In this document: positions 27,624-56,672 of the stretch, piece by piece
Position numbering within the stretch: the stretch's first letter is position 1
How the letters are laid out: each line of letters begins with the position of its first letter
From: Naegleria gruberi
Taxonomy: Eukaryota
DNA: 64,000 nucleotides
Direction: 5' to 3' (one strand)
Assembly: GCA_000004985.1 (NCBI GenBank)
Contig: GG738920.1
Notes under the pieces: generated by a model
Seen by the model: the letters and a program-made list of their open reading frames with translations, nothing else
What the model was told of the DNA's origin: nothing
Database searches by the model: none
Program-made: the position numbers and the translations under genes

Positions 27624-27741
27624 GACTACAGCACCACAGGTTCCCAAGTTGTCTCCAACCTCAGTACTGATGTGGCTCGACGATGCTTAACTTCTCAAAT
27701 CGGACGGGATGAGGTGTATTCATCGTGATATGGCCGTAGCC
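27624..27741 (-). rRNA. 5S rRNA gene, copy 1
   Basis: The reverse complement reads 'GGCTACGGCCATATCACGATGAATACACCTCATCCCGTCCGATTTGAGAAGTTAAGCATCGTCGAGCC...GGTTGGAGACAACTTGGGAACCTGTGGTGCTGTAGTC', about 118 nt, followed by a T-run. It matches the eukaryotic 5S consensus, including the box C region. Confidence 0.9.
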
Positions 27742-28141
27742 ATTCTTCATATAAAAACGTGGGAAATAAATCACAAATACAAACAACCTACTTGCAAACA
27801 TTCAAAAACAACCAACTTTGATTAATAAGGAATGATTTAAACAAGCTAATTTGTTGCTTTCCTATTTGGAAAACTCAAACATTTCATATTTAACATTTTG
27901 TAAAGTGTCTTTTATTGATTTTGAAAAGATGAAACAAGATCTTTTGAAACAACTGACATTGCAATGTCAAATTAAATGAAATTTATCACTCAATCAGAAA
28001 TTCTGACAACCACATCGTTAGATCTAGAATATCAAGTAACTGATCTTGAAGTAGATAATGAAATGTTGTTAATCGGACCTCAATTTCACAAAGATTCGTT
28101 CACACATCAAATGTCAAATCGTTTTCAAACAAATAAAAAAA

Positions 28142-31100
28142 ATGCCAAAACCCAAAAACCTAGCCGCCGATCCAGAAGATCAACAACAGCAAGACCAAAC
28201 ACCATCAACACCTCCCACCACATTAGACGAAACTCCATCGAACACAAACGAAACTCTTTCCGAAGAAGAACAAAAATTTCCAACATTTAAATTACGTTCC
28301 TATGAAGCACTTTTAAATCAAATTCCTCGATTTTCTGTTGATGTAGATATGAGTGAAGATACTACTGAAGTTGGAATGGATGAAAATTTGGATAATTACG
28401 AGTTTTCGAGTGATGATGAAGAAAGTTCGAGTTTGATGAGTGAGGAAATGAAATTGTTGAGACAATCGGAGAGGATGACGAGGAATAATGAGATGAATAG
28501 GTTGTCTGTTGGAAGGATTAGTCAGGAATCGAATGATTTGATGCCGTCGCCAAGACATAGACATGGTGGATTGATACTGAAAAAGGAAAATGCTATTTTG
28601 GTGAATAATTTGAAGGAAAAGATGGTTATTTTGAAGAGATTGATTAAACATGAGGCTAATTACTTGTTTGAATTGGATTTGTTGAGAGAGGTTTGTTTGA
28701 TTAATTAATTTTTTAATTTTTTAATTTATTCCAATTGTTTACATTTTTCAAATTTTTTACTTTTTTAATTTTTGGAAACATTTTAAAATAGAAATTCATT
28801 GGAACTCTCAAAAGATCTGATCTAATCAATTCTGAAGAAATGGAAAGATTATTCTGCTATTCTCAATTGAACATTATTTGGAATGTTAATTCTGAACTTT
28901 TGAATCAATTCGAAACTTTTTACACAACTCTTGAACATATTAATGAACAGAGCACTGTAGTTTCTCCAAGAGCATCCACCATTGGTCAAATCTTTATGAG
29001 ATTGACTCCATTTTTGAAGAATTACATTCAATATTCAAATCAGTTGGATACTTGCATTGTTGCAATTAATAATAAGCGATTGAAGGATTCGTATTTCAAG
29101 TCAATTGTTAAAAAGTTGGAGAGAATGTGCACTAAATTGGCATCTGCTGAGAGAAAGGACAGTTCATTTACTCTTTTACAAGCCATGAAGACTCCTCTTC
29201 AACAATTTGTACATTATAGGAAGGCCTTGATTGGTGAGTAGTTTTTTTCTATTAATTTATTCAATGAAAATTAATTTATTTCAATGTGTTATAATTTAAA
29301 TGTAACAATTGAATGGAATTTTCTAATTCAATAGACCTTCTCGCCATTTCACAATCATCCACTGATGAGTGTAACATATTGAACGATTCCTTGAAATTAA
29401 TCGAAGTTGTCAATCAAACTTTCGATCAATCATTGAAGGAAATGAAAAATCGAGAAAAATTCTATGAAATTAACAAGAAAATTTTTAAACAAGCAGAAAC
29501 TGGTGAAGTTGTAACAATAATCAAACCAAATAGAGTATTTATCAATGAGGCAGAGGTTTACATGACCTCCAGTGAGAATAATTATTTGGAAATTCGTAAG
29601 AAAAGGAAGAAGAAGAAGGATAATAATGCAAATGCCATCTCTGTTACTAAATTGGACATTCCAAATGAAAATTTCTTCAAGGATGAAAAGAACAAACTGG
29701 TAGTTTTCCATTTCAATGATTCCATTGTGATTTGTACTTCTACATTCGAAGCTCCAAAACCTCCAAGAAATTCCAATAGAGAAACAGCTGCAAAGAGAAA
29801 GAGATTGAAGCAAGTTGCCTCAATGATTGACTCTAAGAAATTGAGATTTAAAGAGTGCATTGATTTGGAATCGGATCCAGTTCCTTGGATTAGAAACATT
29901 GTTTCTCCAGACCCACCAATTGTTTCAACCTATGATCAAACAGGACAAGAAATTGTTTCTAGATCCAATTCTGATCTCTCTTTCATGTTCCAATTAATTA
30001 CATGGAGTAGAATTTATACATTCAAGTTCATGGATGAAAGTACAAAGACACAATGGATGTATGCTATTCAACAATCCTTGACAGAAATCAAAGTTTCCAG
30101 AAAACAAGACTTGGATTATCCTCATGCCAAATCAGGAGGTTATTTGGAAATTCCTCAATCTTGGGTTTTACCATCAATTCTCGCTATTCAATCGTATATT
30201 AGAAGTTATCTAGTCGTTCAGAAAACTTTGAGAATTAAAAAGAAATCCAGAAAGGGAAATAGAGCTAGATTGAGTGTCATTCATAGAATTAATCAACAGG
30301 ATAACAAATTATTACAAAATCAAGCATTTGCACAGAGCTATCCAAAGAAGGAGTCAATTACCTTGTTGAAGGATTATGAGGAAGATGTCAATGATTCGTA
30401 CATTGTAGTTGAAGAAGAGGAAGAAGATAAACACAACAAACCAAAGGAAACAATCAAGGTTGTTCAAGAAGTGAAGCAGGATCCTATTGTTGAGAGCCAA
30501 CCAGAAACTGTAGTACACACCACTACTGCTTCTACTTCAGTAGAGGAGAAGGTCATTCCAATTCCAATTCAAGACATTCCAGAAACTTCTACAAGAGAAG
30601 AAGAAGAAGAGAAACAAGCAACGGAAACAATTCAAGAAACTCCTCAACCAATTCAGTTGCCAACTAGAGAACCAATTCAACAAGAAGTAGTATCAACTCA
30701 ACAAGTAGTTATTGAAGAAGAAGTGGAAGAAGAATTAGAAGATGAATCACCAGTTACTACACCAGAAGTTAGAAAGGAAATGGTCGATGAAATCATTTAT
30801 GAGGATGAAAATGGTGCTCAATTCTATGTTCGTGTTGGAGATGAAATTGTCTATGAGGATGAATTTGGAAATCAAGTTGTGGAAATTGTAACTCAGGAAA
30901 AGTTTTGGGAAATTGTCAATGCAGCTGATTTGATGGAAGAAGAGGAAGAAATGGAAATGGCTAGCAGATTAACAGAAACTCAACAAGAAACTGTTTTGGA
31001 AACAAAGAATAATAATATTGGTAATGAAAATGTAATTGCCATTCAAAATCCTGTGGTAGAAACAATTGAAAGTATGAAAATTGTGGAAGAACCTCATGTA

Positions 31101-31856
31101 GAAGAAACTCCAATTCCAACCGCTACTCAGCAAGTTATTGAGCTACAACAAGAGCCAGTGTCTACTGTCCAAGATCTCCAACAACCTCTCACTGAACCTG
31201 CCAAAGATGAAGCACCACTTGTATCAACATCAAACAGTCAACCAACAGTTGTTGAAACAAAACAAGAAATTCTCCCTCCTGTTGAATCTGAATCTGAAAC
31301 TTCTCAACACATTGAAACCTTCACAACTGTAGAACCTAGCCCAGTTACCACTCCACAACCAATCAATCATCAAGAAACCACTCCAACTCAACCTCCAAAT
31401 ACCAAACCAATTATTCCAACATTGGATATTCTCAGAAAAACCTCAGACGTCGATGTTCAACAGCCACCTCAGATATTGCAATCTTCACAACCACCTTCTT
31501 CAACTCCACGTAGATCCATTGTAGCTCTCGATTCACCAAGAAAGAAGGAAGAAGAAATTGCACCATGGCAAAAAGAACTCTTAAACAAGTATAAGAATGA
31601 TGGTAAATTCAAATTTGTTACACAGACAGCTGAGGAAAAGATTGCAAGAGCTAGTTTTTCAGATGAGCATCTTCATGAACAAGAGAGTGCAATGATGATG
31701 ACTCCACGTTCTTCTGGTTTTGATCCGAACAATTCTGCAATTGATCCAGTAACAGCAAAGAATCTCAATCGTCAATCCATTAGAATTAGCTCTGATTTCC
31801 AAAACTTTTTGAAAAAGTTTAAAACTATTGAGCAAAAAGCAAATGAAGAACAGTAA
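28142..31856 (+). CDS. RhoGEF (Dbl-homology domain) protein. Model is join(28142..28690,28792..29233,29335..31856), about 1170 aa, with a long acidic/T/P/Q-rich C-terminal region
   Basis: The DH-domain signature spans exons 1-3 ('ILKRLIKHEANYLFELDLLREV', 'IGQIFMRLTPFLKNYIQYSNQ', 'LQAMKTPLQQFVHYRKALIDLL'). Both introns are 101 nt with GT...AG ends and keep the frame. Confidence 0.7.
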
Positions 31857-31967
31857 AATCATTTTCTAATAATTACAATTGTATCTTCATTAATTTCAGT
31901 ACCATTTCAGATTCAAATTAGCTTAGAATATTATCAAACAAGTTAGTAAACCTAGGTAGTAGAGAAT

Positions 31968-33095
31968 TTAGAGTCCAAAATCGTCATCAGTTTCAGAAGA
32001 ACTTGCAGTAGTTGGAGTGAAAGAACCTTCCTTGAATATGTCCTTCTTGAGAGGTGGTTGGATCTTCTTTTTCTTTTTCCTATTGTTGAGACCCAAATCC
32101 TTTGATGCGAGAGGTTGAGCAGATCCTAGAATGGCAGAGACATTACTCGTGTTGAGTTCAGGTGGGCCAGTTGTTGAGCCTGGTGTTGTGTTATTGGAAG
32201 AATTGAGATTATTACCCTTTGCTGGTTGTACTGCTGTGAGTGGATTTTGTCGAGCTGTTATTGAAGCAAGAGGTACATTCACTCTCTGTTTCTTTCCTCC
32301 AGAATTTTCCAAATCAGAATCAGAATCTCCTCCAGTCATCTCAATACCATTTGAATAAGCAAGAATACTCGAAGCAATACTAATCTCTCTAATGTTATTT
32401 CCAATTTGTACAGAACCATCGGAGAGGATTTTACGTGGAAGATTTTGACCACTTGATTTCTTACCTCCCTGTGTTGTTGTTTGTTCTTCATTGAGATCTT
32501 CCTCCCTAGGTCTGACAATGATTGGATGAACTCTTTCCAATCGATTGCATAATTCTCTTCCTGATTCCAAATGAATGTTGAAAAGTTCTATTTGTAATTT
32601 TACATCTCTTAGCTGTTGATTTGTTTCCAATAAAATTGAATAAGACAGAGTAAAACGAGAAAATTTTGATTGATGAAACTGAATGAGCTTCTATTATTTG
32701 TCTTAAAACTTACCATATTCTCCTTTTGTCTTTTAGTTCTAGTCAGTTTATGTAACGATGCTTCCCAATACCTATTTCCGTATCTATTATTTCATCACAC
32801 AGAAATTAAATAATTCACATGATTGAATATTTATACCATTGATCCATTCAAAATTAACTTACCTTTTTATAAAGGTATGAATAACATCCATATCAGCATC
32901 AATTTGTTCCAACTCTGCCACCAGAACAGTATAATATGTATCCAAAGTATTTACTACCTATTTAAATAGCATCCAAACACGATCAATTACAAGTTTTATC
33001 ATTCAATATTAATGTAATAAGGTTCGTTAAATATCGGATTAAATATTCATCAATTAATTAATCAAGTTACATACGGAGAGAAGGCTTTCAGTCAT
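31968..33095 (-). CDS. Hypothetical coiled-coil protein, about 276 aa. Model is join(31968..32612,32714..32783,32863..32957,33075..33095) on the minus strand
   Basis: Exon 1 is 'MTESLLS' followed by a GTATGT donor. Introns of 117, 79 and 101 nt restore one frame: '...VVNTLDTYYTVLVAELEQIDADMDVIHTFIKRYGNRYWEASLHKLTRTKRQKENMLRDVKLQIELFN...'. The C-terminal exon is in the ORF track. Confidence 0.45.
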
Positions 33096-33525
33096 TTTTT
33101 TAAATTTAATAACAACAGTAGATTTTTGGCGCGAAAATGTTTTCAAAAACCATCACTTTTAGAGAATTACACTTTACGATTGATTATTAAAATAATTTGA
33201 TGTTGTTCCGATATAATTTGTTCAAGAAGTGTTGACTACAAGTAAAACATTTTGTTATCGAATTGACTGGTGGCACTATTTATGCATAACGACATTTTGT
33301 TTTTTTCTATCAAACTTTCGATCCACTCACCTCCATTGTTGATTCAATCAGATTTTTCAAGCCAGGTCATCACCACATTAGCTAAAAAAAATTGGATCCA
33401 CTTTGAATTTTGTAAAGTCAAAAAATGAGAAAGACGTTACGGGTTTTAAAAGCTTATTTAAAATGCAAAGGCCTTCCAGCAATTACCAACACAAAACAAA
33501 ATTCACAACAACCTAGATAAATAAA

Positions 33526-34017
33526 ATGCCAGCCAAGACTAAGAAATCCACTGAAAGCAAGGATAAGACCAAGGAAACCAAGAAGGACAAGGTTACCAAG
33601 AAGACCACAAAGGCTTCCGGTGATGGTGAAGAAGGTGAAAAGGACGACAAGAAGAAGAAGTCTAGACATGAATCCTACTCTTCATATATCTACAAAGTCT
33701 TGAGACAAGTCCACTCTGATATTGGTATTTCCACCAAGGCTATGTCTATCATGAACTCCTTCATTCAAGATATCTTTGAAAGAATTGCCAATGAAGCTGC
33801 TCAATTGTGTAGAGTCAATGGTACTAAGACTTTGTCTTCTCGTGAAATCCAAACTGCTGTCAGATTGATCCTCCCAGGTGAATTGGCTAAGCACGCTGTT
33901 TCTGAAGGTACCAAGGCTGTTACCAAGTATCAAACTTCATCAGGAAAGACTGCTCCAAAGAAGAGAGAGAAGAAGGAAAAGAAGGAAAAGTCTGAAAAGA
34001 CTACTGAAAGCAAGTAA
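33526..34017 (+). CDS. H2B: Histone H2B, 163 aa, with a lysine-rich C-terminal extension
   Basis: '[30 protein letters not shown]...[32 protein letters not shown]' is canonical H2B. Single exon. TATA-like 'tatttaaaa' lies about 70 bp upstream. Confidence 0.9.
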
Positions 34018-34357
34018 TTCGATTACTAACATGACACAATTACCTTTTTGTAAATATCATTTACTGGGATGTGTACTGCATCCAACCTAGATTTCACAAC
34101 TTTTGTAACTCATTAAAACAATAACTTAAATTATTTCAATTTGTGTGAATTGTTTTAATATATTTCCGAATCAAAATTGCTAGATTTAGGATGGTGGTAT
34201 CAGTATGGACTTGCACCTTGATGAATTGCTCACTAGTGGGTTTTACACTAGATCAGTGATAATCAAACTTGGATGGCTTGCTCAGGTAGACACTCGATAA
34301 GTTGATTAGTCAGATAATCTATTTCAATCATAATCAGACAAGTCTTGGTGGTAAAAG

Positions 34358-35182
34358 TTAAATATTTAATGATGAAAGAACTCTCTTGAAGAGAATGTTA
34401 TTCTCCAAATGAACATGAATGTACAAGTTTTCTTCCAACTCGGTGAGCAATCTCTTTGTATTCTCCACAGTTTTGCAATAGTCAGGCAATTCCTTTCTCA
34501 TAGAAGCCAACAATTTAATCAACTTGCCAGCTTCATCATGATCCTCCATCAATGATGCTAGTTTACTCTTCAAGAATGGATTACTTTTATCTTGTTGTTC
34601 ATCATATTGAATGATTAGTGGAAAGACATCCTTCTCCTCCTTTACCAAGTGTACAAGCAATTCAGTGGCAAGACTTTGGAAGATCTTGTACATCTTCTCC
34701 ATCAATAGAATAGAAGGATGAGTTGAGGCTACATCTTGCTCATTCTCTCCTGATGATTGTCTGGCTTGTTGAATTAACTTTCCCATATGAACAGTGTAAA
34801 TCTTGAGTAAGAGTTGGGAAAGAACAGGAATATTCTCCCTGAGGTAATCATGATGATGATGAATAATGTGTTGTACAAGTTGGGAAGCTTTCCAATCAAC
34901 CATTCCTTGTTGAAGAGAGGTAGAGGTGTTGTTATTGTCTTCTTGTTGTTGGCAACATTGAATTTCCATCTCTTGTACTTGTTTAATGATTGAAAGACAT
35001 TCCTCTTCAATGTTACTAACAGAAGATGATTCTTGAACAACACTAATCAAACTTCTCTGACCACCACAACAATAGTCAATACCAAGCTTGTTCAATATGA
35101 GAGGTCCTCCTTTTGGATATTTGGCAATCAAATCACCGAGAAGAATTGATGAAGAAAGGTTGTTTTCAGTTTGTTGTTGCAT
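34358..35182 (-). CDS. Repair-of-iron-centres protein (RIC/YtfE/ScdA family): ScdA_N domain plus a hemerythrin-like di-iron domain, 274 aa
   Basis: N-terminal 'LGDLIAKYPKGGPLILNKLGIDYCCGGQRSL' is the ScdA_N (DUF542) motif. It is followed by paired H/E motifs ('HHHHDYLRE', 'HLVKEEKDVFPL', 'MEDHDEAG', 'HVHLENNILF'). Single exon with host-like codon usage. Confidence 0.75.
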   Translation of the reverse strand: MQQQTENNLSSSILLGDLIAKYPKGGPLILNKLGIDYCCGGQRSLISVVQESSSVSNIEEECLSIIKQVQEMEIQCCQQQEDNNNTSTSLQQGMVDWKASQLVQHIIHHHHDYLRENIPVLSQLLLKIYTVHMGKLIQQARQSSGENEQDVASTHPSILLMEKMYKIFQSLATELLVHLVKEEKDVFPLIIQYDEQQDKSNPFLKSKLASLMEDHDEAGKLIKLLASMRKELPDYCKTVENTKRLLTELEENLYIHVHLENNILFKRVLSSLNI

Positions 35183-38601: not shown

Positions 38602-38631
38602 ATCAGAAAAATAATAAAAAATTTGGCTATT

Positions 38632-43227: not shown

Positions 43228-43420
43228 CAACTCTCGGGTTGAATTTCTATACTCTTTTGGATATTCATCTTGAATTTCCTTAAAATGCTCCTCGGAGTTA
43301 TATTGTAAGATAGAGATTTATAAATTTCCTTGCAAGAGCCAGTTGGTAAGCAAAAGGATTGTTCCACTTTGCTATCTGGGATATTTAATAAATGAGGAAT
43401 ATTTTCAAAGTGAATAAGAT

Positions 43421-43492
43421 TCCCGTGTAGTCCAATGGCTAGGATACCTGGCTTTCACCCAGGAGGTCCGGGTTCAATTCCCGGCATGGGAG
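43421..43492 (+). tRNA. tRNA-Glu (anticodon UUC)
   Basis: 'TCCCGTGTAGTCCAATGGCTAGGATACCTGGCTTTCACCCAGGAGGTCCGGGTTCAATTCCCGGCATGGGAG' folds as a canonical cloverleaf with T-loop GGTTCAATTCC. Confidence 0.9.
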
Positions 43493-43599
43493 AATCATTT
43501 TGTTCATCTGGTGTTTTAATTATTTTGACATGCCAATAATTACAATTATTATCACTCAAGAAAAACCTTGAATTGATGAACAGCTTATCGTTTTCTTAT

Positions 43600-43673
43600 T
43601 CAATATTAAGATTTTGAGAAATTTCAAGGGGATTTTTCTCTTATTTCAATATTAAGATTTTGATGATTTGAAT
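43600..43673 (+). promoter_or_regulatory. Tandemly duplicated 5S upstream element ('cgttttcttattcaatattaagattttga' then 'ttttctcttatttcaatattaagattttga')
   Basis: The same ~30-bp TATA-like element occurs once upstream of 5S copy 3 (about 56453-56495 on the minus strand). Copy 1 has a different TATA-like 'tttttatatgaag' at the same distance. Confidence 0.5.
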
Positions 43674-43791
43674 GGCTACGGCCATATCACGATTCATGCA
43701 CCTCATCCCGTCCGATTTGAGAAGTTAAGCATCGTCGAGCCACATCAGTACTGAGGTTGGAGACAACTTGGGAACCTGTGGTGCTGTAGTC
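43674..43791 (+). rRNA. 5S rRNA gene, copy 2
   Basis: Differs from copies 1 and 3 only at positions 19-24 ('GATTCATGCA'). A TTTT terminator follows directly. It lies 182 bp downstream of tRNA-Glu. Confidence 0.9.
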
Positions 43792-43911
43792 TTTTAATTT
43801 TTCTTTCGTTATGAAAAACCGATTAGCAATCGATATCTTTATTTGAAATGTTGAAGTAGCTCACTTCTATGTTCTCCAATCTGTTGCAGATGAAATTTGA
43901 ACAGCCATCTG

Positions 43912-44889
43912 TCATTGTGCAAATGCTAACTTAAAATAACAACCAGATTGCTTAACAGCTGTAAGAACAACCTCTCTATCAACAGCCAATTCCTCAGAAG
44001 CATACATTCGAGCTTGGTAATCTCTCTTGACAGCTGTCATGACTATTTCTCTATCATTCTTCAATTCATCAGATGCAAACTCGAGTACTTTACCATATTG
44101 CTCCACAGCCAACATTACAATTTTCCTATCATTCCTACTTTCTTCAGAAGCATTTTCAAGTGCCCAACCATTTTGCTTAACAGCTTCCATAACAATTTCT
44201 CTGTCACTTTTCAATTCTTCAGAAGCAAATTCCAGTGAACAACCTTTTGATTTAACTGCTGCCAAGACAATTTCTCTATCTTTTGTTATCTCTTCTGAAG
44301 CAAACTGGAGTGCATAACCACAGTGCTCAACTGCAAACTTGACAATTTCTCCATCTTTTTGAAAATCAGTGGCATATCCTAAAGCATCAACACTTCGTTG
44401 AACTGCCAATAAGACAAATGGTCGATAATTCCACAAGTTGAACAATGAAGCAAGCCAACACATTTCGCTATTGCTGAATAGAGAAATGCACAAATCACAA
44501 AGTTGAAATCTTTCTTTTTTACTGTCAATTCCTGATTCTTGAATCAATTGAATTGCTTCTTCTTCTTGTTCGAAACCGAGTTTCAATATGCGATAGGCAA
44601 ATTTGCGGACTTTCTCCTTGTTTCGATCATCTCTACCACAAAATAAGTGTTGTTTCAGATAAGTGGATGCGATATTCGAATCAAGAGTTAGTATTACGGA
44701 ATCTGAATTATCAATATTTTGAAATGAGAATGATTCAGTGTTTGTTTTTTGTATCTTTGAGGATCGACGTTCGTCCTCACTTTCGAATAGTTTTGAAGAA
44801 TCCTTTCTTTTCATTTTTTCCAGTAAATGATTATTTAAAGCATTTAACAAAATTGTAAAATGGCTATTCGATTTTGTAAAACAATTCAT
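43912..44889 (-). CDS. Repeat protein resembling DUF4116, 325 aa, with about six ~38-aa 'DREIVLxAVKQNGxALEFASEELKxDREIV' repeats
   Basis: The periodic repeat is obvious in the translation. Single exon. It ends 120 bp from 5S copy 2. Confidence 0.6.
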   Translation of the reverse strand: MNCFTKSNSHFTILLNALNNHLLEKMKRKDSSKLFESEDERRSSKIQKTNTESFSFQNIDNSDSVILTLDSNIASTYLKQHLFCGRDDRNKEKVRKFAYRILKLGFEQEEEAIQLIQESGIDSKKERFQLCDLCISLFSNSEMCWLASLFNLWNYRPFVLLAVQRSVDALGYATDFQKDGEIVKFAVEHCGYALQFASEEITKDREIVLAAVKSKGCSLEFASEELKSDREIVMEAVKQNGWALENASEESRNDRKIVMLAVEQYGKVLEFASDELKNDREIVMTAVKRDYQARMYASEELAVDREVVLTAVKQSGCYFKLAFAQ

Positions 44890-44903
44890 AACCTTAAAAA
44901 AAA

Positions 44904-45520: not shown

Positions 45521-45700
45521 TCATGTAATATTTTGTAATTGAAAGTTAAAATTAAAAAAATGGAAAAGCAATGAATCACAAAACGATAGAGAAATAATTC
45601 GAATCACTAATTCACACAAAAAGAACGAGTAACAATAATATTAACTTATTGTGAGGAAGGACCCGGTCGGAGAATTCACATTGAAATTCACCAAAAAAAA

Positions 45701-48700
45701 ATGCACAACTCCTCACCACAATTCCTTAATAACATAACAAGGAACATCACAGGGAGAAGAAATTCGCTTTTCCTTTTTATGATGATGACTGTCATCATGA
45801 TCCTAATAACAAATTCATTAGAAATAACTGGTAGTGCAAATAATCAGATGAAACCACTCTCTTACAAGATATCGACAATCGCTGGTCAGGGTTTGATTTC
45901 GGAACAAGATAATTTGAAAGCAAGTTTTGGTTTTGCATCAATGATCTTTATGAATAGGAATGAGAAGGGAGAACAAGTTGAAGATATACTTCTTGTTGAT
46001 GATATCAATTTAGCTGTTAGGAGATTAACTTTTAGAAAGAATGATCAGAATGAGTTCATACCTTCGACAGTAAAAGTATTGGCTGGTGGTATTCCTATGG
46101 AACCTTCACTAGCATATATGAAACCTAAGTTATTGACAATTTCTGAAGGAGGTGATGATGATGAGAATGGTAGAGGAGAAATTTATGTGTTTGAGGAGAG
46201 GAATGGAGGAATGATCAAGAAGATTGACAGGAAGGGAGATTTGCAATTAATTGCCAAATCCTCGAGTGATTCATTCGTATGTGAAGAAGTGAGCTTGGAT
46301 AAGGCAAATTGGGTCTCAATTTCGGATATGAAATATTCAAGAGAAGGAATGGAGGAGGTTTTATATCTTGTTGATTCTAAAAAGATTATTTTGAGAGCTT
46401 CCCTAACAAGAAGAACTATCAAAGCAATAACTAAATGTGTAAAAGATATTACAAATGCTATAATTGATAGTGCCGATCCTTCAGATTTCATTGAAATTAA
46501 TAGTATTTTTGTAAGAAAGAATAGCGAAAATAAGGTAATTCTATATGTTGCTGACAGTAACTCATTGAAAAAGATTGAGCAAGATGGAAATGTATCCAAA
46601 ATTGCTGGAAATGGAAAAGATTACCTGACTGATGCAGATGTATCTACCAACGCACTAAACACAACAGTTTATCCAACCAAGATATTTGTAAATTCTGGAG
46701 GAGAAATTTTATTCACAGAAATGAAGTTTAACAAAATCAGAAAGTTAGACATTCATGGAAATGTTGTATCTATCCAAAGAAATCCGTTTGTCCTCTCGAA
46801 GGGAGTGCTTCAGTCACCTCTCACTAATAATATTTACTTTGAGGAACATAATATAATTTACAAAATGACAGATAAGGGAAATGAACCAATGTTTGGAAAT
46901 GGAACTATTAACAGTCTTAATGGAGTACATGCCATGCAAGCAAGAATTAATCCAATTTCAGTACAAGTTTCATCCAAATCTGGAAAGGATATTATTACTG
47001 TTTTGGATTCTGAGGAATATTTCAAATCAAGAGTAATTGATGAAAATCAAATTATTCAAACAGTAATAGGAGGAGGAATATATAATTTATTGGATATTGA
47101 AGGGATTGATGCATTGAGTGTTCAATTTGTAAAGAATGTTAAAAATTCATTCAGATCCAACAATGGAGATCAATATATTGTGCTGAGCTCAGAATTATTC
47201 AAAATCAATGATGAAGGTAAACTGGTTAGAGTTATTGGATCTGGTTCAAAATTTGCAGGAGATGGTCATAGTGCTTTGTCAGCTATCCTTAATGAACCAA
47301 GTGGTGTTTTTTATTCGAAAACATTAGGAAAAACCTTTATTGCAGATTCAAAGAATGACAGAGTTAGAGTTATTTCTAAAGAGGGTGTTATCTCAACTAT
47401 CATTGGTAAATTGGAGGGCACTGTAGATAACCCAAGAGATGTGATGGAAAGAAATGGATATTTGTACTACGCTGAAAGATCAATTATTTGCAAAATTGAT
47501 TTGGTATCGAATGAACTAGAAGTTATGGTTGGTAATAGACAAACTTCTTTTAATGGTGATGGAAAGAAAGGAAATGAAACATCTATTGGTCCAGAGAGTA
47601 TTTATGTGACTGAAGAAGGTGATATTTACTTTGCTGACATTTCAAATCATCGAATTAGAAAGTGGACAAGAAAAACCGATCTAGTTTCAACAATTGCTGG
47701 AACTGGTGTGCAAGGCTCCAGTGAAGATGGAATTCTGGCAACAAATTCCACAATTGACTCACCATCTGGTGTCTATTTGAATAGAAAGGGAGAGGTTTAT
47801 TTTGTGGAAAGTGAGAGCCATAAAATCAGAAAGATTACATCTGAAGGCAAACTCTTAACCCTCTTCCAAGTGAGATCTCCACACCGATTGATTGTTACAA
47901 GTAATGACGAAGTTATTGTTTCACATGATGCATTCATTACCAAATATTCGAATGGTGAGGTAACAGCAGTTGCAGGATCTAGAATGAAATCGTATCCCGA
48001 ATTGGACGATGATCCATTCGAAACATATTTTGGTTCAATTGGTGGTCTTTCATTTGGAGAGACAGAATCGGATTTACTCTTTGCCAATCCAAAATTTGAT
48101 TTAATTAGAAAGATTTCAAATGGATCCCTATCGAATGTTGCAGGTAGTCATGGAGACGGATTGAATGCACTCGAAGCTAGATTTATGGATATTTCCTCTG
48201 TGGTAGTGAGTCCAGACAATGAGTTGTTCATTGCCGATTCAATGGATCATACTATTAGAAAAGTTTCTAGTGACGGTATTGTTTCAACCATTGCTGGTGT
48301 CTCACAAATTCATGGCTATAACTTATATGATCCACAAGAGAGCATTCTCAATGGACCTACTTCACTTTCTAGTGCAAAAAATGGTGATTTATTCTTCATC
48401 GATCAAAAGAATTATGTCATTCGAAAGATTTCCAATGGAATAGTTACCACAATTATTGGAACACCAAACGAGAGATGCGATATGGAAGAAGGAAAGAGAG
48501 GAAGAGAAACCTGTTTGAGTATGCCACAAAGTCTCGCAGTTTCACCAGGAGGAGATGCTCTTGTTTTTTCTGATCTCTCAACAATAGGAATTTTCCATTA
48601 CAACCTCAATGATGAGAATGCAGTTATTAGACGAATTGCTGGATTTGAAAATGTTATAGGATATAATGGAGATGGAGAAGCCACTACAACATTGATTTCA

Positions 48701-49168
48701 CATGTGCCAAGTTTGGCATTCTCTAACGATGGTTTATCCGTCTATTTTGTTGATAGCAGTAATAATCTTATTAGAAAGCTATCACCTTATTGTCCAGAGG
48801 ATTATGAACTCTCTGAAAAATTACAACAATGCACTGAGAAAGTCATTCCACATCCTAACGAGAGTCCAAAGAAACCAAAACCTCATTTCTCAATGTTCAT
48901 TCCAGGGAATTCTAACATGAGTGGAATGATTAGTGAAAATCTTATGGCTCTACTTCTAGTAACAATTGGATCTGTACTCATTTTGTCAATCATTCTGGCA
49001 GGAGCTATTTATTACTTGCTCAAGAATAGAGAAAGTCAAAAACATTATCAGAAAGTTGAAAGAGATGAAATTCCTGAAGATGTGGATGATAATGATATAG
49101 GAAAATTCTCACTTGGAGCTGATCTTGAAGAAGAAGAAGAAGAAACAGAGGATATTGAAATGATTTAA
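45701..49168 (+). CDS. Type I membrane protein with many NHL repeats (six-bladed beta-propeller type), 1155 aa, with an N-terminal signal or anchor and an acidic cytoplasmic tail
   Basis: Recurrent 'AD(S/I)xNHRIRK(I/W)' NHL motifs (for example 'ADSKNDRVRVIS', 'ADISNHRIRKW', 'VESESHKIRKIT', 'ADSMDHTIRKVS', 'IDQKNYVIRKIS'). TM helix 'LMALLLVTIGSVLILSIILAGAIYYLL'. Single exon. Confidence 0.7.
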   Translation: MHNSSPQFLNNITRNITGRRNSLFLFMMMTVIMILITNSLEITGSANNQMKPLSYKISTIAGQGLISEQDNLKASFGFASMIFMNRNEKGEQVEDILLVDDINLAVRRLTFRKNDQNEFIPSTVKVLAGGIPMEPSLAYMKPKLLTISEGGDDDENGRGEIYVFEERNGGMIKKIDRKGDLQLIAKSSSDSFVCEEVSLDKANWVSISDMKYSREGMEEVLYLVDSKKIILRASLTRRTIKAITKCVKDITNAIIDSADPSDFIEINSIFVRKNSENKVILYVADSNSLKKIEQDGNVSKIAGNGKDYLTDADVSTNALNTTVYPTKIFVNSGGEILFTEMKFNKIRKLDIHGNVVSIQRNPFVLSKGVLQSPLTNNIYFEEHNIIYKMTDKGNEPMFGNGTINSLNGVHAMQARINPISVQVSSKSGKDIITVLDSEEYFKSRVIDENQIIQTVIGGGIYNLLDIEGIDALSVQFVKNVKNSFRSNNGDQYIVLSSELFKINDEGKLVRVIGSGSKFAGDGHSALSAILNEPSGVFYSKTLGKTFIADSKNDRVRVISKEGVISTIIGKLEGTVDNPRDVMERNGYLYYAERSIICKIDLVSNELEVMVGNRQTSFNGDGKKGNETSIGPESIYVTEEGDIYFADISNHRIRKWTRKTDLVSTIAGTGVQGSSEDGILATNSTIDSPSGVYLNRKGEVYFVESESHKIRKITSEGKLLTLFQVRSPHRLIVTSNDEVIVSHDAFITKYSNGEVTAVAGSRMKSYPELDDDPFETYFGSIGGLSFGETESDLLFANPKFDLIRKISNGSLSNVAGSHGDGLNALEARFMDISSVVVSPDNELFIADSMDHTIRKVSSDGIVSTIAGVSQIHGYNLYDPQESILNGPTSLSSAKNGDLFFIDQKNYVIRKISNGIVTTIIGTPNERCDMEEGKRGRETCLSMPQSLAVSPGGDALVFSDLSTIGIFHYNLNDENAVIRRIAGFENVIGYNGDGEATTTLISHVPSLAFSNDGLSVYFVDSSNNLIRKLSPYCPEDYELSEKLQQCTEKVIPHPNESPKKPKPHFSMFIPGNSNMSGMISENLMALLLVTIGSVLILSIILAGAIYYLLKNRESQKHYQKVERDEIPEDVDDNDIGKFSLGADLEEEEEETEDIEMI

Positions 49169-49254
49169 AATTAAATTATATAATACTTAATACTTTACAA
49201 TCACTATTTAAAAAAAATATAAAAAAATATAAAAAAAAAAATTTAAAAAAAAAT

Positions 49255-49641: not shown

Positions 49642-50117
49642 TTATTGTTGTTAATTTTGATGATGAAGATGATGTTAGTAAATGATGCTATGATATGATG
49701 AATACTATTTAATTGAGATTTTGATCAAAGATGCATGCAGAGATGATGTGGGACGGATGTGCATATCGGATTTATATTTCAATTAGATCTTTCTATATAA
49801 GAATTATTGAACGGACGTGAAAATCATGAATCCAAAATTGTAAATTATGAACACATGATTGATGATGATTGAATACACAAACCATGTTTTGTATTATTAT
49901 CGTGACTATTGCATGACGTTTTGCAGGACTCCAATCACATGATCAGTTGAGACCTCACTTTGAGACTCCAATCAAGAATGTGGCTGCCATGCTGAATATT
50001 TCATTGAGCATTAGCATGCATGAAATATCTAATGATATTTAAACTAGAGTAAATGCATGAGATGGATGAGAATGCATACATATATTAAACCAACTTGATA
50101 TAACATTTGGAATTACA

Positions 50118-51143
50118 TTAATGACCAGTTTTAGCTTTTACATATTGATAAAAATCAGAGCTGAACAATGAAACTCTCCATGTATGTTTGCTCTGCTTGA
50201 ATAGATGTGGATTCTCCTTAGCCAATCGTTTGAATTCCTCACTAGTTAGAACTAATTTACATTCCTTCTCTGGAAACTCCTTTTCAAACATGGGAACAAA
50301 ATTGACCAACACGCGAGTTCTGGAGCTGATTGCTTTGAATGCTCCCACGAGGTAATACGTTTTCGAACCCCAATTGACCACCATTTGAGAAGGATCAATC
50401 TCGCTATGGTCTGAACTAGATGATTCATCAAATGCCATTGAACTAAATGTAATGCATGCGGGTGTAGAAGATGATGATGGAGTTTTTCCATTAGAATTAG
50501 ATGTTTTTCTCTTAGTTGGGGTTGATTCTCGAATGCATTCATCTCTCTTCCTCTTAAATTGCGCAATTTCATCCTTTAATTGCTTATTTTCCATTTGTAA
50601 TTGATTAATAATTAGCATTTGCTGCTCACATCTATGTTCCAGATTAATGTTTTCAAATTGAGATTTGGACATGTGCATGTTAGATGTGTCCTGCATTTCA
50701 TTCTTCATGTTTACACGTTGATAATTAGTAGTGGAAAGTATTACATCTTGTTTTAACTCCATGATGTTAGATGGCGATGCAACATGTTGATGTAACATCT
50801 TACTTGGTTGTTGATAAGATGGAGCTGTGTAAATTACATGTGATATTTGAGAAGGTCGAAGAACTGGAGGTGATGTGTGTTTCAATGTGTCCATGCTTGT
50901 TACTACAAATGGGTTTGCAATTGAACCATTGCTATGGATATTAGGTATTGAGTTGATTCTTTGAGTGGAAAACACATCGTGTTGAGATTCATGTGGTGGT
51001 AGATGGTTAAGAGAAGGATGACTATTCGAAACTAGATCCTTTATGGATGGTAGCATGTTTGTTGTTGGTAAATGTTGTAAACATGTGTTGGTATTCATTG
51101 GGACATTATTTGCAATGACATTTGTTTGCTGGTTATTAGACAT
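50118..51143 (-). CDS. Hypothetical protein, about 341 aa, with a basic region plus a leucine-zipper-like coiled coil (LQMENKQLKDEIAQFKRKRDE)
   Basis: ORF from the track, with the first ATG at 51143 (the track start at 51200 is GTG). Confidence 0.45.
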   Translation of the reverse strand: MSNNQQTNVIANNVPMNTNTCLQHLPTTNMLPSIKDLVSNSHPSLNHLPPHESQHDVFSTQRINSIPNIHSNGSIANPFVVTSMDTLKHTSPPVLRPSQISHVIYTAPSYQQPSKMLHQHVASPSNIMELKQDVILSTTNYQRVNMKNEMQDTSNMHMSKSQFENINLEHRCEQQMLIINQLQMENKQLKDEIAQFKRKRDECIRESTPTKRKTSNSNGKTPSSSSTPACITFSSMAFDESSSSDHSEIDPSQMVVNWGSKTYYLVGAFKAISSRTRVLVNFVPMFEKEFPEKECKLVLTSEEFKRLAKENPHLFKQSKHTWRVSLFSSDFYQYVKAKTGH

Positions 51144-51754
51144 TGCTATTTTTTTAAGTTGAGATTCGAATATTCGGCGCCAGCCGCACCTCAGCTTCAC
51201 GTTGCGGAGTATTCCTGTGCCACAACTTTTTCAAAAAATGGCACCAAACATCTACCAAAACATCGTTGATAGATGTCGACATGCATTTGAAATACTATAT
51301 ATTTCGAATAAATTGAATTCAATGATTGATCATATCTCTCAATTCTGAATGAAGATCATAAAATGACAACGTTCACCTTACGGTACCAATTAACTCTTCA
51401 TGAAGAAATGTTCTAAATGAGTGTAGAAAAAAGTAATTGAAGTCAATGATTCCTCTGTGTCCATTGACATCTAGTTACAGTAGTCGATGGTGTGTATGAT
51501 GAGTATGATGAAAATGAACCTTTTATTGATTTGTTGATGTATTCATAATTATCATTTATCGTCGATCAATATTTAATTCAGGTATGGAAATGCCAAATTT
51601 ATCATTTAGGTCGCGACAAAGTTCGGTAGCTCACTGAAATCTGGTTGCGAGAGATTTGTTGTGATTTACCAAACATTTATTAAAATTATCATTCAACATT
51701 TAAACATGTTTCAACTTTTCAAATGTTCATTTAATTACAAATTTAAGCTTCATT

Positions 51755-52348
51755 TCAACACAATTTTGAAACTTGTAAATTAATGCAAACTTCATTATCA
51801 GGCGTATAGACTCTCTCATGTGGAATGGTTTTTGTCTTTTTACTGATATGAGCCAATTCAGTACAATCTACAATCTCCACAAAATCCTCTCCATTCCTAA
51901 ATGTTTCTCTCTTTTTAATTCCTAATTGTAAATCCCTCCTCCTCTTAATTGGCTCCAATTCTGGTGAATAATCAGGATCCCACTGAGCTCTAGTCAACCC
52001 AGCTCCAGCTCCTTTCAATCTTGCCTTTTTCAAAATATCATCATAGGCACTTTTTTTCAACCACAACCCAAGAATTCTTGTCTGATTTTGCTTAGTTGCA
52101 TAATTTGATCGATACATCATCCATAGCCAATTGGATTTCACCCAGGTCATTCGGGTATCATTATACGAAGGACATCCATCAAACTTTTGATGTTTGACCG
52201 CATAATCTGCAATTTCATCATTAAATGCTTGATAAACAAGAACCGCATCCTCGGTATAGCTTGCAATTATGTGATTTCCGTCATCGGGCCACTCGTTTCT
52301 TGCCTCTCCGTACGGAATAAGCGTGAGGGTTCGTTGATTGTTTGCCAT
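51755..52348 (-). CDS. Conserved hypothetical protein, 197 aa (resembles DUF4291-type proteins)
   Basis: Complete ATG-to-stop ORF. 'WVKSNWLWMMYRSNYATKQNQTRILGLWLKKSAYDDIL' is the conserved core. Family assignment is from memory. Confidence 0.45.
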   Translation of the reverse strand: MANNQRTLTLIPYGEARNEWPDDGNHIIASYTEDAVLVYQAFNDEIADYAVKHQKFDGCPSYNDTRMTWVKSNWLWMMYRSNYATKQNQTRILGLWLKKSAYDDILKKARLKGAGAGLTRAQWDPDYSPELEPIKRRRDLQLGIKKRETFRNGEDFVEIVDCTELAHISKKTKTIPHERVYTPDNEVCINLQVSKLC

Positions 52349-53850
52349 TTTTTTTTTGTTGAGATTTTTAATTTTAGATTTTGTAAATTTTATAAATTTG
52401 GAACTGAAAATTAAGGATTTACATTTGGAAATTGAAATTGTAAAGTTGTGTGAATTGACAAATAATTTTCAATAGAGGAATCGTCTATGCTATCTGAAAT
52501 ATCTGATGCCACGTCTGGAGATTGGCTTTGCACATGATTTTAAGCAATTTGGCAAAACAACTTTTTTGTGTTTTAAAATTCTTTATTTTGAAACAAGACA
52601 AGAAATCAAACAACAAGCTTTTGATAATTAGCTGAAGATTGAGCCAACTTTGAAATCTTTTCAAATAACATAAGTCTTTTCAATAATTGCCAAATCCTTA
52701 ACATTTTCATCTCACGATATGGCAATGAAATTTGATGTAAACGCGCTACATCTCAGTTCACAACCATCAATGATTGTTTTCGGACACCAAATCAATGACA
52801 CTTATTGAATTCACGTTCCATAAGTTTATTCTGAGTTTCGAATAATCTCTCTATTATCATCTCTCTCCTGTTGGCCACGTACGTTTGTCACAACACATTG
52901 ATGTGTTTTTCTGAGAAAAATACAATTTCCTTTTTTGCATTTTCATAAAAGGCATAAAAAATAGCCGTTTAATAACGAAAATTTGTAATTTTTATGAAAT
53001 TCATGGCATCGAACACACATCTATTTGATGTGAATTGATAAATTTGAATTGATACAATTCTCTTCCAAATTTGGAAAAATGTTGAATTTGGAAATTATTC
53101 GAATATGGTGCGAGTTGAATGTGAGGAATTATGCCTTACTATTGTACCGAAACGAAACTGAAATTTAGTATAGACTTTCTAATACTAAAATACTATTTAA
53201 TATATTTTTCAATGAAAATGAATGTATAATTTATCAATGCTTGTTAATCAAAACGTGTTTTTCAATTTTCATGTTACATTGCAAATTAATAAAAACAAGA
53301 TTGAGAACAAGTAATTATACTAATGGGTATTAAAGCTCAGGGACTGTTACACCTTTAAGGTGATTCAGCCTTGAGACCTGCTTTAATGGATATAAATCTT
53401 TATTAGCAGGTCCCGAGATTAATAAATATGGCTCTTATAAAAAAACTTATCAATAGTATTAGTAAAGATAAGAAAAAAATTAGGAGGTGCGAATAGGATG
53501 GCATAACTAAACTGAAATTAAAATAAAAAAGATATCATTTGATGATATCTGAAACCTCACTTCAATGAACACTTACCAAGAATCATTGAGAGCGTAAAAA
53601 AGGTTGAATAAGGGTGGGACTAATTGGGTGGGAGTTATCTGCAGAAGGTGAGCTAAGGTCTTTCGTTTTCTTGTTGTTCTTTGGTGTAGTTGGTGTTGGG
53701 GCCATTGTGATAATTTTTTGAGCATGGAAAAATACTCAACTTATATTTTATTAAGTTTACAATGAAAACAAGTCCATTCTTCACTTCGCTCAGAATTAGA
53801 CATCACGTTTGCTAAATTAAGAAAGATCAAAAACTTTCAAACATAAAAAA

Positions 53851-55164
53851 ATGTCAAATCTTCGCTCACGAATTAGCAGCTCCATTATTGATCAGAAAAC
53901 ATTGATTTCGACGGAGGATGAAGTGACCAACGAGTTGGAACACATTTTTCTCTACTTGTCAAATTTTAAACCATTGGAAGAGGAGAATTCTGATGGAGAA
54001 ATTGTTATTCGAAATCAGACGAATGATTCCAATGACCAGGAAGATGAACTGGATTCGAATGTTGATGATGATGATGAATTTTTATATTATAGAAGTGAAA
54101 TTGTTGATCAAATGTCTGAAATATTCGAAAGGAGAAGAAGCAATTCTTCATCTTTCGTATTAGTTTACAATAATGTTCATTATTTGAACGAACCAGTTGT
54201 ATTTGGTAATATTCTAGATTATTATTTCAAACCAAACGATTCAGATTTTAATCCAAAGAAAGCAGGCGGAACTTCTTCCACTTTCTTACACTTTCTAACA
54301 TTGAGAGAGGTCTGTAAATCTTGGAAGAAATACATAGACGAAAGGTATGGCAGAAGCTTCATTCTCTCCATTTTCCAAGACAGAATTCAATATCAAGATT
54401 GTAAACCAAATATGGATTTGTGTTTGTTTCGTCTATGTGGTCTACCTTTCTCCCTAGCTCTCATTCCAGCAGTTATGGCTTTCGAATATTCAAAAGATGA
54501 ATGCACACAAGCAATTTCTATGTGGCTCTCCTTTCGTCTAACTTGGATGATCGTGAGTGGCTATCCAGTTTTAGTTCCAGCTATTTGTTGTGCAACTTTG
54601 GTTGATTTGGCCATTGAAAAGATGCGTGAAAGAAGTTTCTTCCAAAGATTAGAAAGCAGATACGAAACTATGGAACACAGTGTCATGAGTGAAATTACGT
54701 ATTTTGAAAAGTGTGAGATTGTTGCAACCATTCAAGATTCCTCAAAAACATTTAACAAACATTCATGTTTCTATATCATTGAGGTTACGCTTAATGTGAA
54801 TGGAAAGTTGTTGGGCTTTCGAATACAGAAAAAGTATACTCAATTCAAAATATTGTTCGATATCATGTGTAAATGTGTTGATAATAATAATAATAGGGAT
54901 GGAACTTTAGAGGTCAATTCGAATGAGAGAATTGAATTTCCACTCAAGAGATGGTCTCTATTTACGAATCCAGACGAAATCATTGAAGAAAGAAAGCATG
55001 TTTTCCAGAAAATGTTGAATCTCATTGTTGAGCATTCGAATATTTTCCACAACTCTGAAATTTACACATTCTTTTACGATAGAAAAAATCAACAAGTTTT
55101 GTTGGGAAATTGTGCTAGAGAAAGTGGTGAAGAGGAGGGCTTTCTTCTAGTTGATAATGAATAG
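53851..55164 (+). CDS. PX (phox) domain protein, 437 aa, with central hydrophobic segments
   Basis: The C-terminal 'FYIIEVTLNVNGKLLGFRIQKKYTQFKILFD...IEFPLKRWSLFTNPDEIIEERKHVFQKMLN' matches PX architecture. Confidence 0.5.
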   Translation: MSNLRSRISSSIIDQKTLISTEDEVTNELEHIFLYLSNFKPLEEENSDGEIVIRNQTNDSNDQEDELDSNVDDDDEFLYYRSEIVDQMSEIFERRRSNSSSFVLVYNNVHYLNEPVVFGNILDYYFKPNDSDFNPKKAGGTSSTFLHFLTLREVCKSWKKYIDERYGRSFILSIFQDRIQYQDCKPNMDLCLFRLCGLPFSLALIPAVMAFEYSKDECTQAISMWLSFRLTWMIVSGYPVLVPAICCATLVDLAIEKMRERSFFQRLESRYETMEHSVMSEITYFEKCEIVATIQDSSKTFNKHSCFYIIEVTLNVNGKLLGFRIQKKYTQFKILFDIMCKCVDNNNNRDGTLEVNSNERIEFPLKRWSLFTNPDEIIEERKHVFQKMLNLIVEHSNIFHNSEIYTFFYDRKNQQVLLGNCARESGEEEGFLLVDNE

Positions 55165-55393
55165 TGTAAGATTGTCTGATGTCTTGATGAATAAACTTGG
55201 GGATTGTTCCCTTCTTCATTGTCAATCGAGTTTGTGAAATAATAATTGATAAATGACTTATCAGATAGGAGAATTAAACAATTGACTGCAATTATTTCAA
55301 GATCAGCTAAAAAAGTTAGAATACAATTGATTTTTTCCAAATCCTGTGTGAGTATCTATTTCCATTCAAAAAAGACGTGAAACCAAAATGATT

Positions 55394-55465
55394 CTCCCAT
55401 GCCGGGAATTGAACCCGGACCTCCTGGGTGAAAGCCAGGTATCCTAGCCATTGGACTACACGGGA
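55394..55465 (-). tRNA. tRNA-Glu (UUC), identical to the 43421-43492 copy, in inverted orientation
   Basis: Exact reverse complement of the + copy. About 35 bp of 5' flank is also conserved. Confidence 0.9.
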
Positions 55466-56334
55466 ATCTTATTCTCTTTAAAAATATTCCTCATCTATAA
55501 AATAGCATTGGTTGTAACGAAAAATTAATTATTCCAATCATTTAAGTTCTTTCTAGATCAGAAAGCATACAGTGTAGTAGTTCCTTACAAAAATCTAAAC
55601 CAAAACCATCTTGAAAAACAAGCTCTATACCTAGTCCAGAGTCTCAAGAAGAAATTGGACGAAAATTTATAAAGTTTTAAGAAAAGATAAAGTTGCAATA
55701 TTTCTGAGTTTTCTGGATATTCAAAAAGTGAAATATTCCGAATGTTAAATTGAAATACTTATTACCAGGTTAGCTAGCCATTCTTAAAATTCGTCATCAT
55801 ACATGCTCGGAATTTGACAAATACTCAATTTTGCTCTGATTGAGATTTCTTTGTGCAATGATTTTTCAATTAATTAAAAGAGTTAGGTGGCTCCTAATCT
55901 GACGGTTTGTGCAATGTCTGATTGAAACCAAATCAAAGTGAGCAATTAAGCTCAAACCCTGATCCCTACAAAAAATTGAGTTAATAGTAGATGCAACCCG
56001 TGAGCTGCTTTCAGCTATTAAACTGAAAAGAACAGATACTACACTCGATCAAAGCCAATTGGCCGAGAAAGATGGTTTTGAGAATTGCATAAGGAACAGA
56101 GTTTTTATTCTGTTGGTTGTGGAGCGAAGAATGGCAAAATGTTTGTGGTATTTTAATAAATTTTAATGCCTTGTTCGACTATTGATATTGAACATGTAGC
56201 GAATCTTAATAATCAATATTTATGATGGAGCAGTTCAATCAGAACTTGGAAAGAATGTGAGAAGCAAACTTGACCAACAATTAAGGGGGATTGATAAGTA
56301 AACGTGAACTAGTGAAAAAACAAATAAACAAAAA

Positions 56335-56452
56335 GACTACAGCACCACAGGTTCCCAAGTTGTCTCCAACCTCAGTACTGATGTGGCTCGACGATGCTTA
56401 ACTTCTCAAATCGGACGGGATGAGGTGCGTTCATCGTGATATGGCCGTAGCC
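56335..56452 (-). rRNA. 5S rRNA gene, copy 3
   Basis: The reverse complement matches copies 1 and 2 except at positions 19-24 ('GATGAACGCA'). T-run terminator. It carries the upstream element shared with copy 2. Confidence 0.9.
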
Positions 56453-56672
56453 ACTCAGATTATCAAAATCTTAATATTGAATAAGAAAACGGTCAGCTGT
56501 TTGAAGCTGTTGATAATCAGAAAGAAATCTTCCACTTGGGTGTGATAATAAATAAGAGGAATTCCCCTTGAAATTTTGGTACAAAAAGGTTGTTCTCTTT
56601 ATTAAATTTACAAAACATAGGATATCTAATATCCTCTTGTAACAGCAATGGTGTAAGATGAAATTAAAATTA

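Follow-up and report, generated by a model that had tools for sequence, protein, structure and literature searches.

Three dispersed 5S rRNA genes in the first 64 kb of Naegleria gruberi scaffold_76: a paralogous pair with a rearranged upstream flank, and sequence variation confined to loop B and its closing pairs

The stretch of DNA analyzed here, referred to throughout as the window, comprises 64,000 nucleotides of Naegleria gruberi contig GG738920.1 and carries three 5S ribosomal RNA (rRNA) genes, numbered copies 1 to 3 in order of position (Table 1). A covariance scan of the whole window with Rfam returned nine RNA genes: the three 5S genes, one U2 small nuclear RNA (snRNA) and five tRNAs. 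Each 5S match spans the full RF00001 model (positions 1-120) with an E-value between 1e-20 and 3e-22 and a score of 100-106 bits, where the gathering score is 38, so that the initial annotation was right in placing three 5S genes at these positions. The three are identical at 115 of 119 positions, and each is closed at its 3' end by a terminator-like T4-T5 run. No additional 5S fragments occur within the 64 kb, and the Rfam scan found no match to small- or large-subunit rRNA anywhere in the window, hence no rDNA unit. Spacings of 16 and 12.6 kb on mixed strands do not make a head-to-tail array. Every copy sits in a short spacer bounded by protein-coding open reading frames (ORFs), with flanks distinct from those of the others; the products encoded nearby are typically eukaryotic, namely a cullin, DAP3, an NHL-repeat protein and proteins with DUF4116 repeats. 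(Compared with N. gruberi predicted proteins that share a contig of 218,836 bp, the NHL protein shows 100% identity and the cullin, taken as its raw ORF, 92%, the shortfall in the latter probably representing intron read-through.) The three 5S genes are genuine, intact and dispersed, and from their sequences they are probably functional members of a larger family.

That family has been catalogued. In a search of the JGI N. gruberi assembly, Feng, Sun, Xin and Wen (2012, PLoS One 7:e36878, PMC3369914) collected 279 putative 5S genes, set out in Table S1 of their paper, among them scaffold_76 27622-27738, 43677-43793 and 56333-56452, which are copies 1, 2 and 3. Because these coordinates are the window's own, the window is scaffold_76's opening 64 kb, and both the 5S arrangement and these exact loci are already published. 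The main text of that paper describes the 5S genes as unlinked to rDNA and as equipped with an internal control region and a TATA box; the variation in loop B, the upstream block with its rearrangement and the tRNA and U2 neighbors described below are mentioned neither there nor in Table S1. From the coordinates in Table S1 we took entries of at least 110 nt as near-full-length, which retained 264 of the 279, spread over 113 scaffolds. Neighbors on the same scaffold are 33 kb apart at the median and never closer than 1,104 bp, no period recurs, and no small scaffold in the list bears several copies. Table 1 of the same paper scores the N. gruberi 5S genes as 'tandem arrangement: Y', an entry contradicted by the spacing in its own Table S1. 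The family is dispersed and loosely clustered, not tandem, in agreement with the initial annotation, which had placed the three genes outside any tandem array or rDNA unit; the contrary case that it named, stray fragments of a tandem array located elsewhere, finds no support in so many near-full-length and widely spaced copies. By similarity score, the Table S1 entries fall into a main class of 161 copies and several smaller ones, the three window copies belonging to classes of 13, 27 and 40.

Within the window, the copies vary only at positions 21, 22, 24 and 25 of the gene, position 23 being invariant; the pentamers at 21-25, read in register, are given in Table 1. The differences had been assigned to positions 19-24 on the basis of the hexamers GAATAC, TTCATG and GAACGC, a reading that is 1-2 nt out of register and whose hexamers do not line up with one another; their confinement to the helix II/loop B region stands. 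If variable sites were placed at random, four of them would fall inside a 5-nt span of the 119-nt gene with a probability of about 6e-5. On the Rfam structure they correspond to loop B and its two closing pairs: G21-C57 closes helix II, loop B has positions 22-24 as its 5' strand, and at the base of helix III position 25 is paired with U52. Pairing at this last position is kept as either A25-U52 or G25.U52. A pair is broken only in copy 2, where the Rfam alignment flags the last pair of helix II, U21.C57, as a mismatch. The predicted minimum free energy (MFE) of copy 2 is -37.6 kcal/mol compared with about -41 for the others, 3.6 kcal/mol weaker than copy 1, and its fold is still canonical; indeed all four pentamer variants considered, those of the three window copies and one from an environmental Naegleria contig (below), are predicted to fold into the canonical 5S structure with three helix arms. 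Across copies 3, 2 and 1, positions 24-25 read CG, TG and TA, a series that would resemble CpG decay. At positions 21-22, the GA of copy 1 (27720-27721) is replaced in copy 2 (43694-43695) by its reverse complement, TC, turning ATGAAT into the self-complementary ATTCAT, which may be the trace of a micro-inversion or simply chance.

Variation in the same region is found in related genes. Scanning metagenome contigs with a 30-nt core of the 5S gene yielded 13 contigs with one 5S gene apiece. The gene on the environmental Naegleria contig L006 is identical to the window copies save for a fourth pentamer, GAAAG, and has unrelated flanks. Eleven eukaryotic contigs from assemblies VFQM and VFQO (L002-L005 and L007-L013) likewise carry one 5S gene each between unrelated flanks; their copies differ by compensated changes in helix II (GCGTA/TGCGC, GTGTA/TGCAC, GCATA/TGTGC, GCTGA/TCAGC), and an FGGY kinase from these assemblies has only ~40% identity to many unrelated eukaryotes. 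When 14 full-length related 5S genes are aligned, pairing holds in 98.7% of structure cells and double changes are present at 13 pairs, values of which neither was reached in any of 500 shuffles. Among the 11 distinct sequences, the sole unpaired helix II cell is that of copy 2. Helix II/loop B is thus the part that varies among these related 5S genes, within structural limits. Conservation of the 5S sites themselves is a separate matter on which the Naegleria lovaniensis locus with the cullin orthologue (L001) is uninformative, since its colinear match covers window 29.3-41.0 kb only and stops short of copy 2; neither 5S nor tRNA genes lie on it. Another 88 kb, in four loci from N. fowleri, N. 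lovaniensis and Willaertia, contain one tRNA and no 5S gene.

Candidate internal promoter parts are in the usual places. The box A pattern NSYYAANCNNNNNNN has a single match, at +50-64; for box C, the best match, at +80-97, departs from the pattern of Feng et al. (PMC3369914) by 2 mismatches. The variable site lies outside both, so an effect on transcription is not expected. Of the two meanings the initial annotation had offered for this variation, tolerated change or copy-specific function, the second finds no support in sites that avoid box A and box C and leave the folds canonical, and tolerated variation or drift in loop B is, most simply, the better account. Upstream, copies 2 and 3 have a TATA-like candidate TATTAA at -24..-19, which may be Feng et al.'s TATA-like box (PMC3369914), and the L006 gene has TTATAG at about -24..-19 (read by eye). 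Copy 1 does differ from these, as first proposed, yet it has two AT-rich candidate boxes instead of one element: ATTTATTT at -30..-23 and TTTTTATATG at -16..-7, the latter with TATAT at -12..-8. In DNA of 66% A+T none of these candidates is above chance.

A 19-mer, TTCAATATTAAGATTTTGA, has exactly three exact occurrences in the window (43599-43617, 43645-43663 and, on the minus strand, 56463-56481), at -29..-11 of both copy 2 and copy 3 and again at -75..-57 of copy 2. Allowing up to 3 mismatches gives 5 matches, compared with 0.44 expected from shuffles. It belongs to what we call the A-block, which is accompanied by a second stretch, the B-block, and by two short patches (Table 1). Toward the gene, the order for copy 3 is B-block (AAATTTCAAGGGGAATTCCTCTTATTT), TTATTATCAC, AACAGCTT, A-block; for copy 2 it is TTATTATCAC, AACAGCTT, A-block, B-block, partial A-block. 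The A-block repeat before copy 2 is a direct repeat 46 nt apart with the B-block between, and Tandem Repeats Finder detected no array there, so that the block is shared and repeated, as the initial annotation had it, but not tandemly duplicated. Homology between copies 2 and 3 is broader than the ~30-bp block first noted: it takes in the gene, patches within ~125 nt upstream and, on the downstream side, 8 nt and no more. The two form a pair about 12.5 kb apart in inverted orientation.

Neither block occurs upstream of copy 1, of the environmental L006 copy, or in the tRNA upstream regions; the blocks therefore mark a paralogous pair and not a general promoter element, and the shared block is best read, from its distribution, as the flank of two paralogues. 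A general Naegleria upstream motif for RNA polymerase III (Pol III) was sought in 7 independent upstream windows, and no 4- to 6-mer was common to most of them; the only feature that stood out was an A+T content of 0.71-0.87 against a background of 0.66. Two other candidate explanations for upstream sequence were set aside. A permissive Rfam search of the spacers upstream of copies 2 and 3 gave noise only, leaving no tRNA relic or other known RNA there, and a lenient blastn alignment of ~85 nt upstream of copies 1 and 2 had ~58% identity, the chance level for AT-rich DNA.

Two of the 5S genes have close RNA-gene neighbors. On the minus strand, an island at 55393-57373 comprises tRNA-Arg, tRNA-Tyr, 5S copy 3, U2 and tRNA-Glu with spacers of 220-540 nt, and a second grouping, a tRNA-Glu/5S pair, occupies 43420-43792. 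A same-strand tRNA gene 180-220 nt upstream of 2 of the 3 5S genes has a chance probability of ~3e-4 if the 5 tRNA genes are placed randomly in 64 kb. This link is not universal: a 150-aa ORF stands between copy 1 and the nearest tRNA gene, and the L006 contig (1,964 bp) has no tRNA. Each of the 180- and 220-nt spacers opens with a T4 run, and the pairs are accordingly not dicistrons of the Yarrowia type. The two tRNA-Glu genes are themselves paralogues (43382-43520 and 55364-55504; 141 nt, 91% identity, including 38 nt upstream and ~27 nt downstream) that lie on opposite sides of their 5S partners, which indicates that tRNA and 5S modules were duplicated or moved separately. The tRNA-Tyr(GTA) gene contains an intron of ~13-14 nt and was found by Rfam and missed by ARAGORN, and a CTTTTAA motif is located directly 3' of the U2 gene. 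In trypanosomatids U2 is transcribed by Pol III, as it may be here.

Table 1. RNA genes and upstream blocks in the window. Offsets are relative to the 5S gene concerned.
Feature	Position	Strand	Remarks
5S copy 1	27623-27741	-	Rfam RF00001, 106 bits; pentamer 21-25 GAATA at 27717-27721
5S copy 2	43674-43792	+	Rfam RF00001, 100.3 bits; pentamer TCATG at 43694-43698
5S copy 3	56334-56452	-	Rfam RF00001, 105.2 bits; pentamer GAACG at 56428-56432
Copy 2 distal A-block, CGTTTTCTTATTCAATATTAAGATTTTGA	43589-43617	+	-85..-57; preceded by AACAGCTT and TTATTATCAC patches, also in copy 3
Copy 2 B-block, AAATTTCAAGGGGATTTTTCTCTTATTT	43619-43646	+	between the two A-blocks; 14-mer and 9-mer common with copy 3, offsets 69 and 70
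Copy 2 proximal A-block, TTCAATATTAAGATTTTGAT	43645-43664	+	-29..-10; TATA-like candidate TATTAA at -24..-19; same diagonal as copy 3
Copy 3 A-block	56462-56491	-	-39..-10
Copy 3 B-block, AAATTTCAAGGGGAATTCCTCTTATTT	56550-56576	-	-124..-98
tRNA-Asp(GTC)	26191-26261	+	1.36 kb from copy 1, convergent; 150-aa ORF between
tRNA-Glu(TTC)	43420-43493	+	180 nt upstream of copy 2, same strand; followed by T4 run
tRNA-Glu(TTC)	55393-55466	-	last gene of the copy 3 cluster
U2 snRNA	55882-56075	-	Rfam RF00004, 115 bits; 258 nt downstream of copy 3, same strand
tRNA-Tyr(GTA), with intron	56673-56759	-	Rfam, 54.8 bits; 220 nt upstream of copy 3, same strand; followed by T4 run
tRNA-Arg(TCT)	57300-57373	-	first gene of the copy 3 same-strand cluster

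The explanation we favor, and hold to be very probably correct, is that these are three ordinary and probably functional members of the dispersed N. gruberi 5S family (~264 near-full-length copies on more than 110 scaffolds), which spread by small DNA duplications. Each copy would be a stand-alone Pol III unit made up of box A, the box C-like stretch, an AT-rich TATA-like segment ~15-30 nt upstream and a T4-T5 terminator. The family would have spread through duplication, at the DNA level, of tiny modules consisting of the gene and up to ~125 nt of upstream flank, with copies 2 and 3 as one such paralogous pair; retroposition was rejected as the mechanism for this pair, whose shared upstream sequence is untranscribed. 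After the duplication, the upstream region of copy 2 would have been rearranged at a TCTTATT microhomology, leaving a repeated A-block: we infer that a B...A unit was duplicated and that the present order arose when sequence was deleted between the TCTTATT motif of B and that of A. Purifying selection, possibly together with gene conversion, would hold 115 of 119 positions identical, while change would be tolerated in loop B, on its 5' strand, and at its two closing pairs, the GA to TC replacement in copy 2 costing one pair.

This explanation must be tempered by several considerations. The function we attribute to the three genes is predicted from their intactness, and none of them carries the commonest sequence of the family, since all belong to minority score classes of Table S1 (PMC3369914). 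The broken G21-C57 pair and the rearranged promoter may have left copy 2 impaired. BLAST and PSI-BLAST searches by Feng et al. (PMC3369914) turned up no TFIIIA in N. gruberi, and with that reported absence the textbook internal-promoter mechanism may not fully apply. Finally, the A-block has a 20-nt core that does not vary among its three occurrences, while 3 of the 9 gene-adjacent nucleotides differ, a weak hint of constraint; the A-block may then be a working promoter element of the copy 2/3 subfamily and not a passive flank.

One alternative is that copy 2, and perhaps others, is decaying or weakly functional, its RNA being poorly made or kept out of ribosomes. Such decay would fit the U21.C57 mismatch, unique in helix II among the 11 distinct sequences, the weaker predicted fold, the lowest Rfam score of the three and the rearranged upstream region. 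Copy 2 is nevertheless intact at the remaining 115 positions, in box A and its box C-like stretch, and at the terminator, and its proximal A-block stands at the same distance from the gene (-29..-10) as in copy 3. Its score class in Table S1 (PMC3369914) has 27 listed copies, which argues against a lone decaying gene, although members of a class need not be identical in sequence. Taken together we think decay unlikely.

Another possibility is that the A- and B-blocks and the neighboring tRNA genes are essential elements that recruit TFIIIB and TFIIIC without TFIIIA, which would depart from the type 1 Pol III promoter. This would be in keeping with the failure of Feng et al. to find TFIIIA (PMC3369914), with the perfect conservation of the A-block core next to differing bases, with the proximity of same-strand tRNA genes to 2 of the 3 5S genes, and with Yarrowia, which shows that 5S expression can be tRNA-driven and TFIIIA-independent (PMC2566860). 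Against it, copy 1 and L006 both lack the blocks, and L006 also has no tRNA in ~1.3 kb upstream; read-through is not expected from upstream tRNA genes that both end in a T4 run; the box A and box C-like matches are at canonical positions; and the absence of TFIIIA was concluded from BLAST searches only (PMC3369914). We regard essential upstream elements as decidedly unlikely.

Equally doubtful, or slightly more so, is the proposal that the variants are functionally distinct 5S classes with promoter families of their own, expressed according to life stage (amoeba, flagellate, cyst). Three copies do have three pentamers and at least two types of upstream flank, several score classes in the published list have tens of members each (PMC3369914), and stage-specific 5S types are described elsewhere, e.g. 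in zebrafish (PMC5340908). Yet copies 2 and 3 share the same proximal block and differ in pentamer, which uncouples flank from variant in the only testable pair; the changes are few, in the most tolerant part of the molecule and outside box A and box C; and the CG/TG/TA series looks like neutral CpG decay. Joining the last two proposals, i.e. that without TFIIIA the ~264 scattered 5S genes are driven by A-block-like upstream elements or tRNA neighbors and that the loop B variants are promoter-defined life-stage classes, produces a scheme to which we give less credence still; were it true, such 5S classes would amount to promoter-coupled ribosome heterogeneity in a free-living protist. It is hardly credible that the dispersed copies are an artefact of assembly or stray pseudogenes of a collapsed or missed tandem array, as N gaps in the scaffold, the draft status of the 2010 assembly and the 'Y' in Table 1 of Feng et al. 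might suggest, given the unique flanks and distinct protein-coding ORFs around each copy, a closest listed pair 1.1 kb apart with no small multi-copy scaffold in Table S1 (PMC3369914), and environmental contigs with one copy each between unrelated flanks.

Other features of the window were noted in passing. Arrays of (CCCAAA)n at 2140-2334 and 4105-4468 (~33 and 62 units) lie beside assembly gaps and resemble telomere-type TTTGGG repeats, which suggests that scaffold_76 starts at or near a chromosome end. The gaps are runs of N at 4056-4104 and from 5249 to about 7330; a stretch of 9% GC with ~700-aa 'ORFs' in several frames on both strands at 5200-7346 is an artefact of the latter. DUF4116 repeat proteins (Pfam) are encoded on the minus strand at 43912-44889 and 62205-63902, the former with an internal DNA repeat of 75-nt period at 43940-44302, just downstream of 5S copy 2, and the minus-strand ORF at 19135-20928 has a similar repeat pattern. 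The NHL-repeat membrane protein next to copy 2 (1155 aa, 45701-49168, plus strand) had no orthologue among the other Naegleria species searched, its next-best matches being at ~25% identity, the two source-named ones among them bacterial.

The importance of these findings beyond annotation is small. The window neatly illustrates near-identity maintained by a protist across hundreds of scattered 5S genes, with drift in loop B. Several fungi and protists are known to have dispersed 5S genes that show TATA-like boxes and sequence variants: Neurospora crassa and Schizosaccharomyces pombe have many scattered single 5S units with TATA-like boxes near -30, and the N. crassa copies include sequence variants. 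Arabidopsis belongs to the same TATA-assisted type, in which the box stands about 20-30 nt upstream. Among vertebrates, Xenopus has oocyte and somatic 5S types. The fungal likeness, which includes Yarrowia lipolytica, consists in scattered single 5S units with unrelated flanks. Of the 108 dispersed 5S genes in Y. lipolytica, 48 form dicistrons in which the 5S is fused directly to the 3' side of a tRNA gene (Acker et al. 2008, PMC2566860), whereas here the tRNA genes are 180-220 nt away, have T4 runs of their own and are not dicistronic with 5S. What the window shares with Xenopus and with zebrafish, for which maternal and somatic, stage-specific 5S types are described (PMC5340908), is the presence of several 5S sequence variants within one genome; those vertebrate types form separate tandem arrays with proven differential expression, in contrast to the single scattered genes here, which differ at 2-3 sites. 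How 5S is transcribed if N. gruberi truly lacks TFIIIA is the question to carry forward.

The closest likeness is to Leishmania major, a fellow member of Discoba with Naegleria, in which 11 dispersed 5S genes are all clustered with tRNA genes, some clusters also containing snRNA genes (Padilla-Mejia et al. 2009, PMC2695483). Short clusters of 5S, tRNA and snRNA genes are common to both, with a mean spacer of 202 nt in L. major compared with 180-540 nt here (PMC2695483). The two differ in number and in constancy, all 11 genes of L. major standing beside tRNA genes and the association being partial among the ~264 of N. gruberi, as copy 1 and L006 attest. The likeness is one of gene layout only, and no action of the tRNA boxes on 5S or U2 is implied. 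With that understanding, the window shows Pol III genes (5S and tRNA) grouped together with a U2 snRNA gene in small islands, as in Leishmania.

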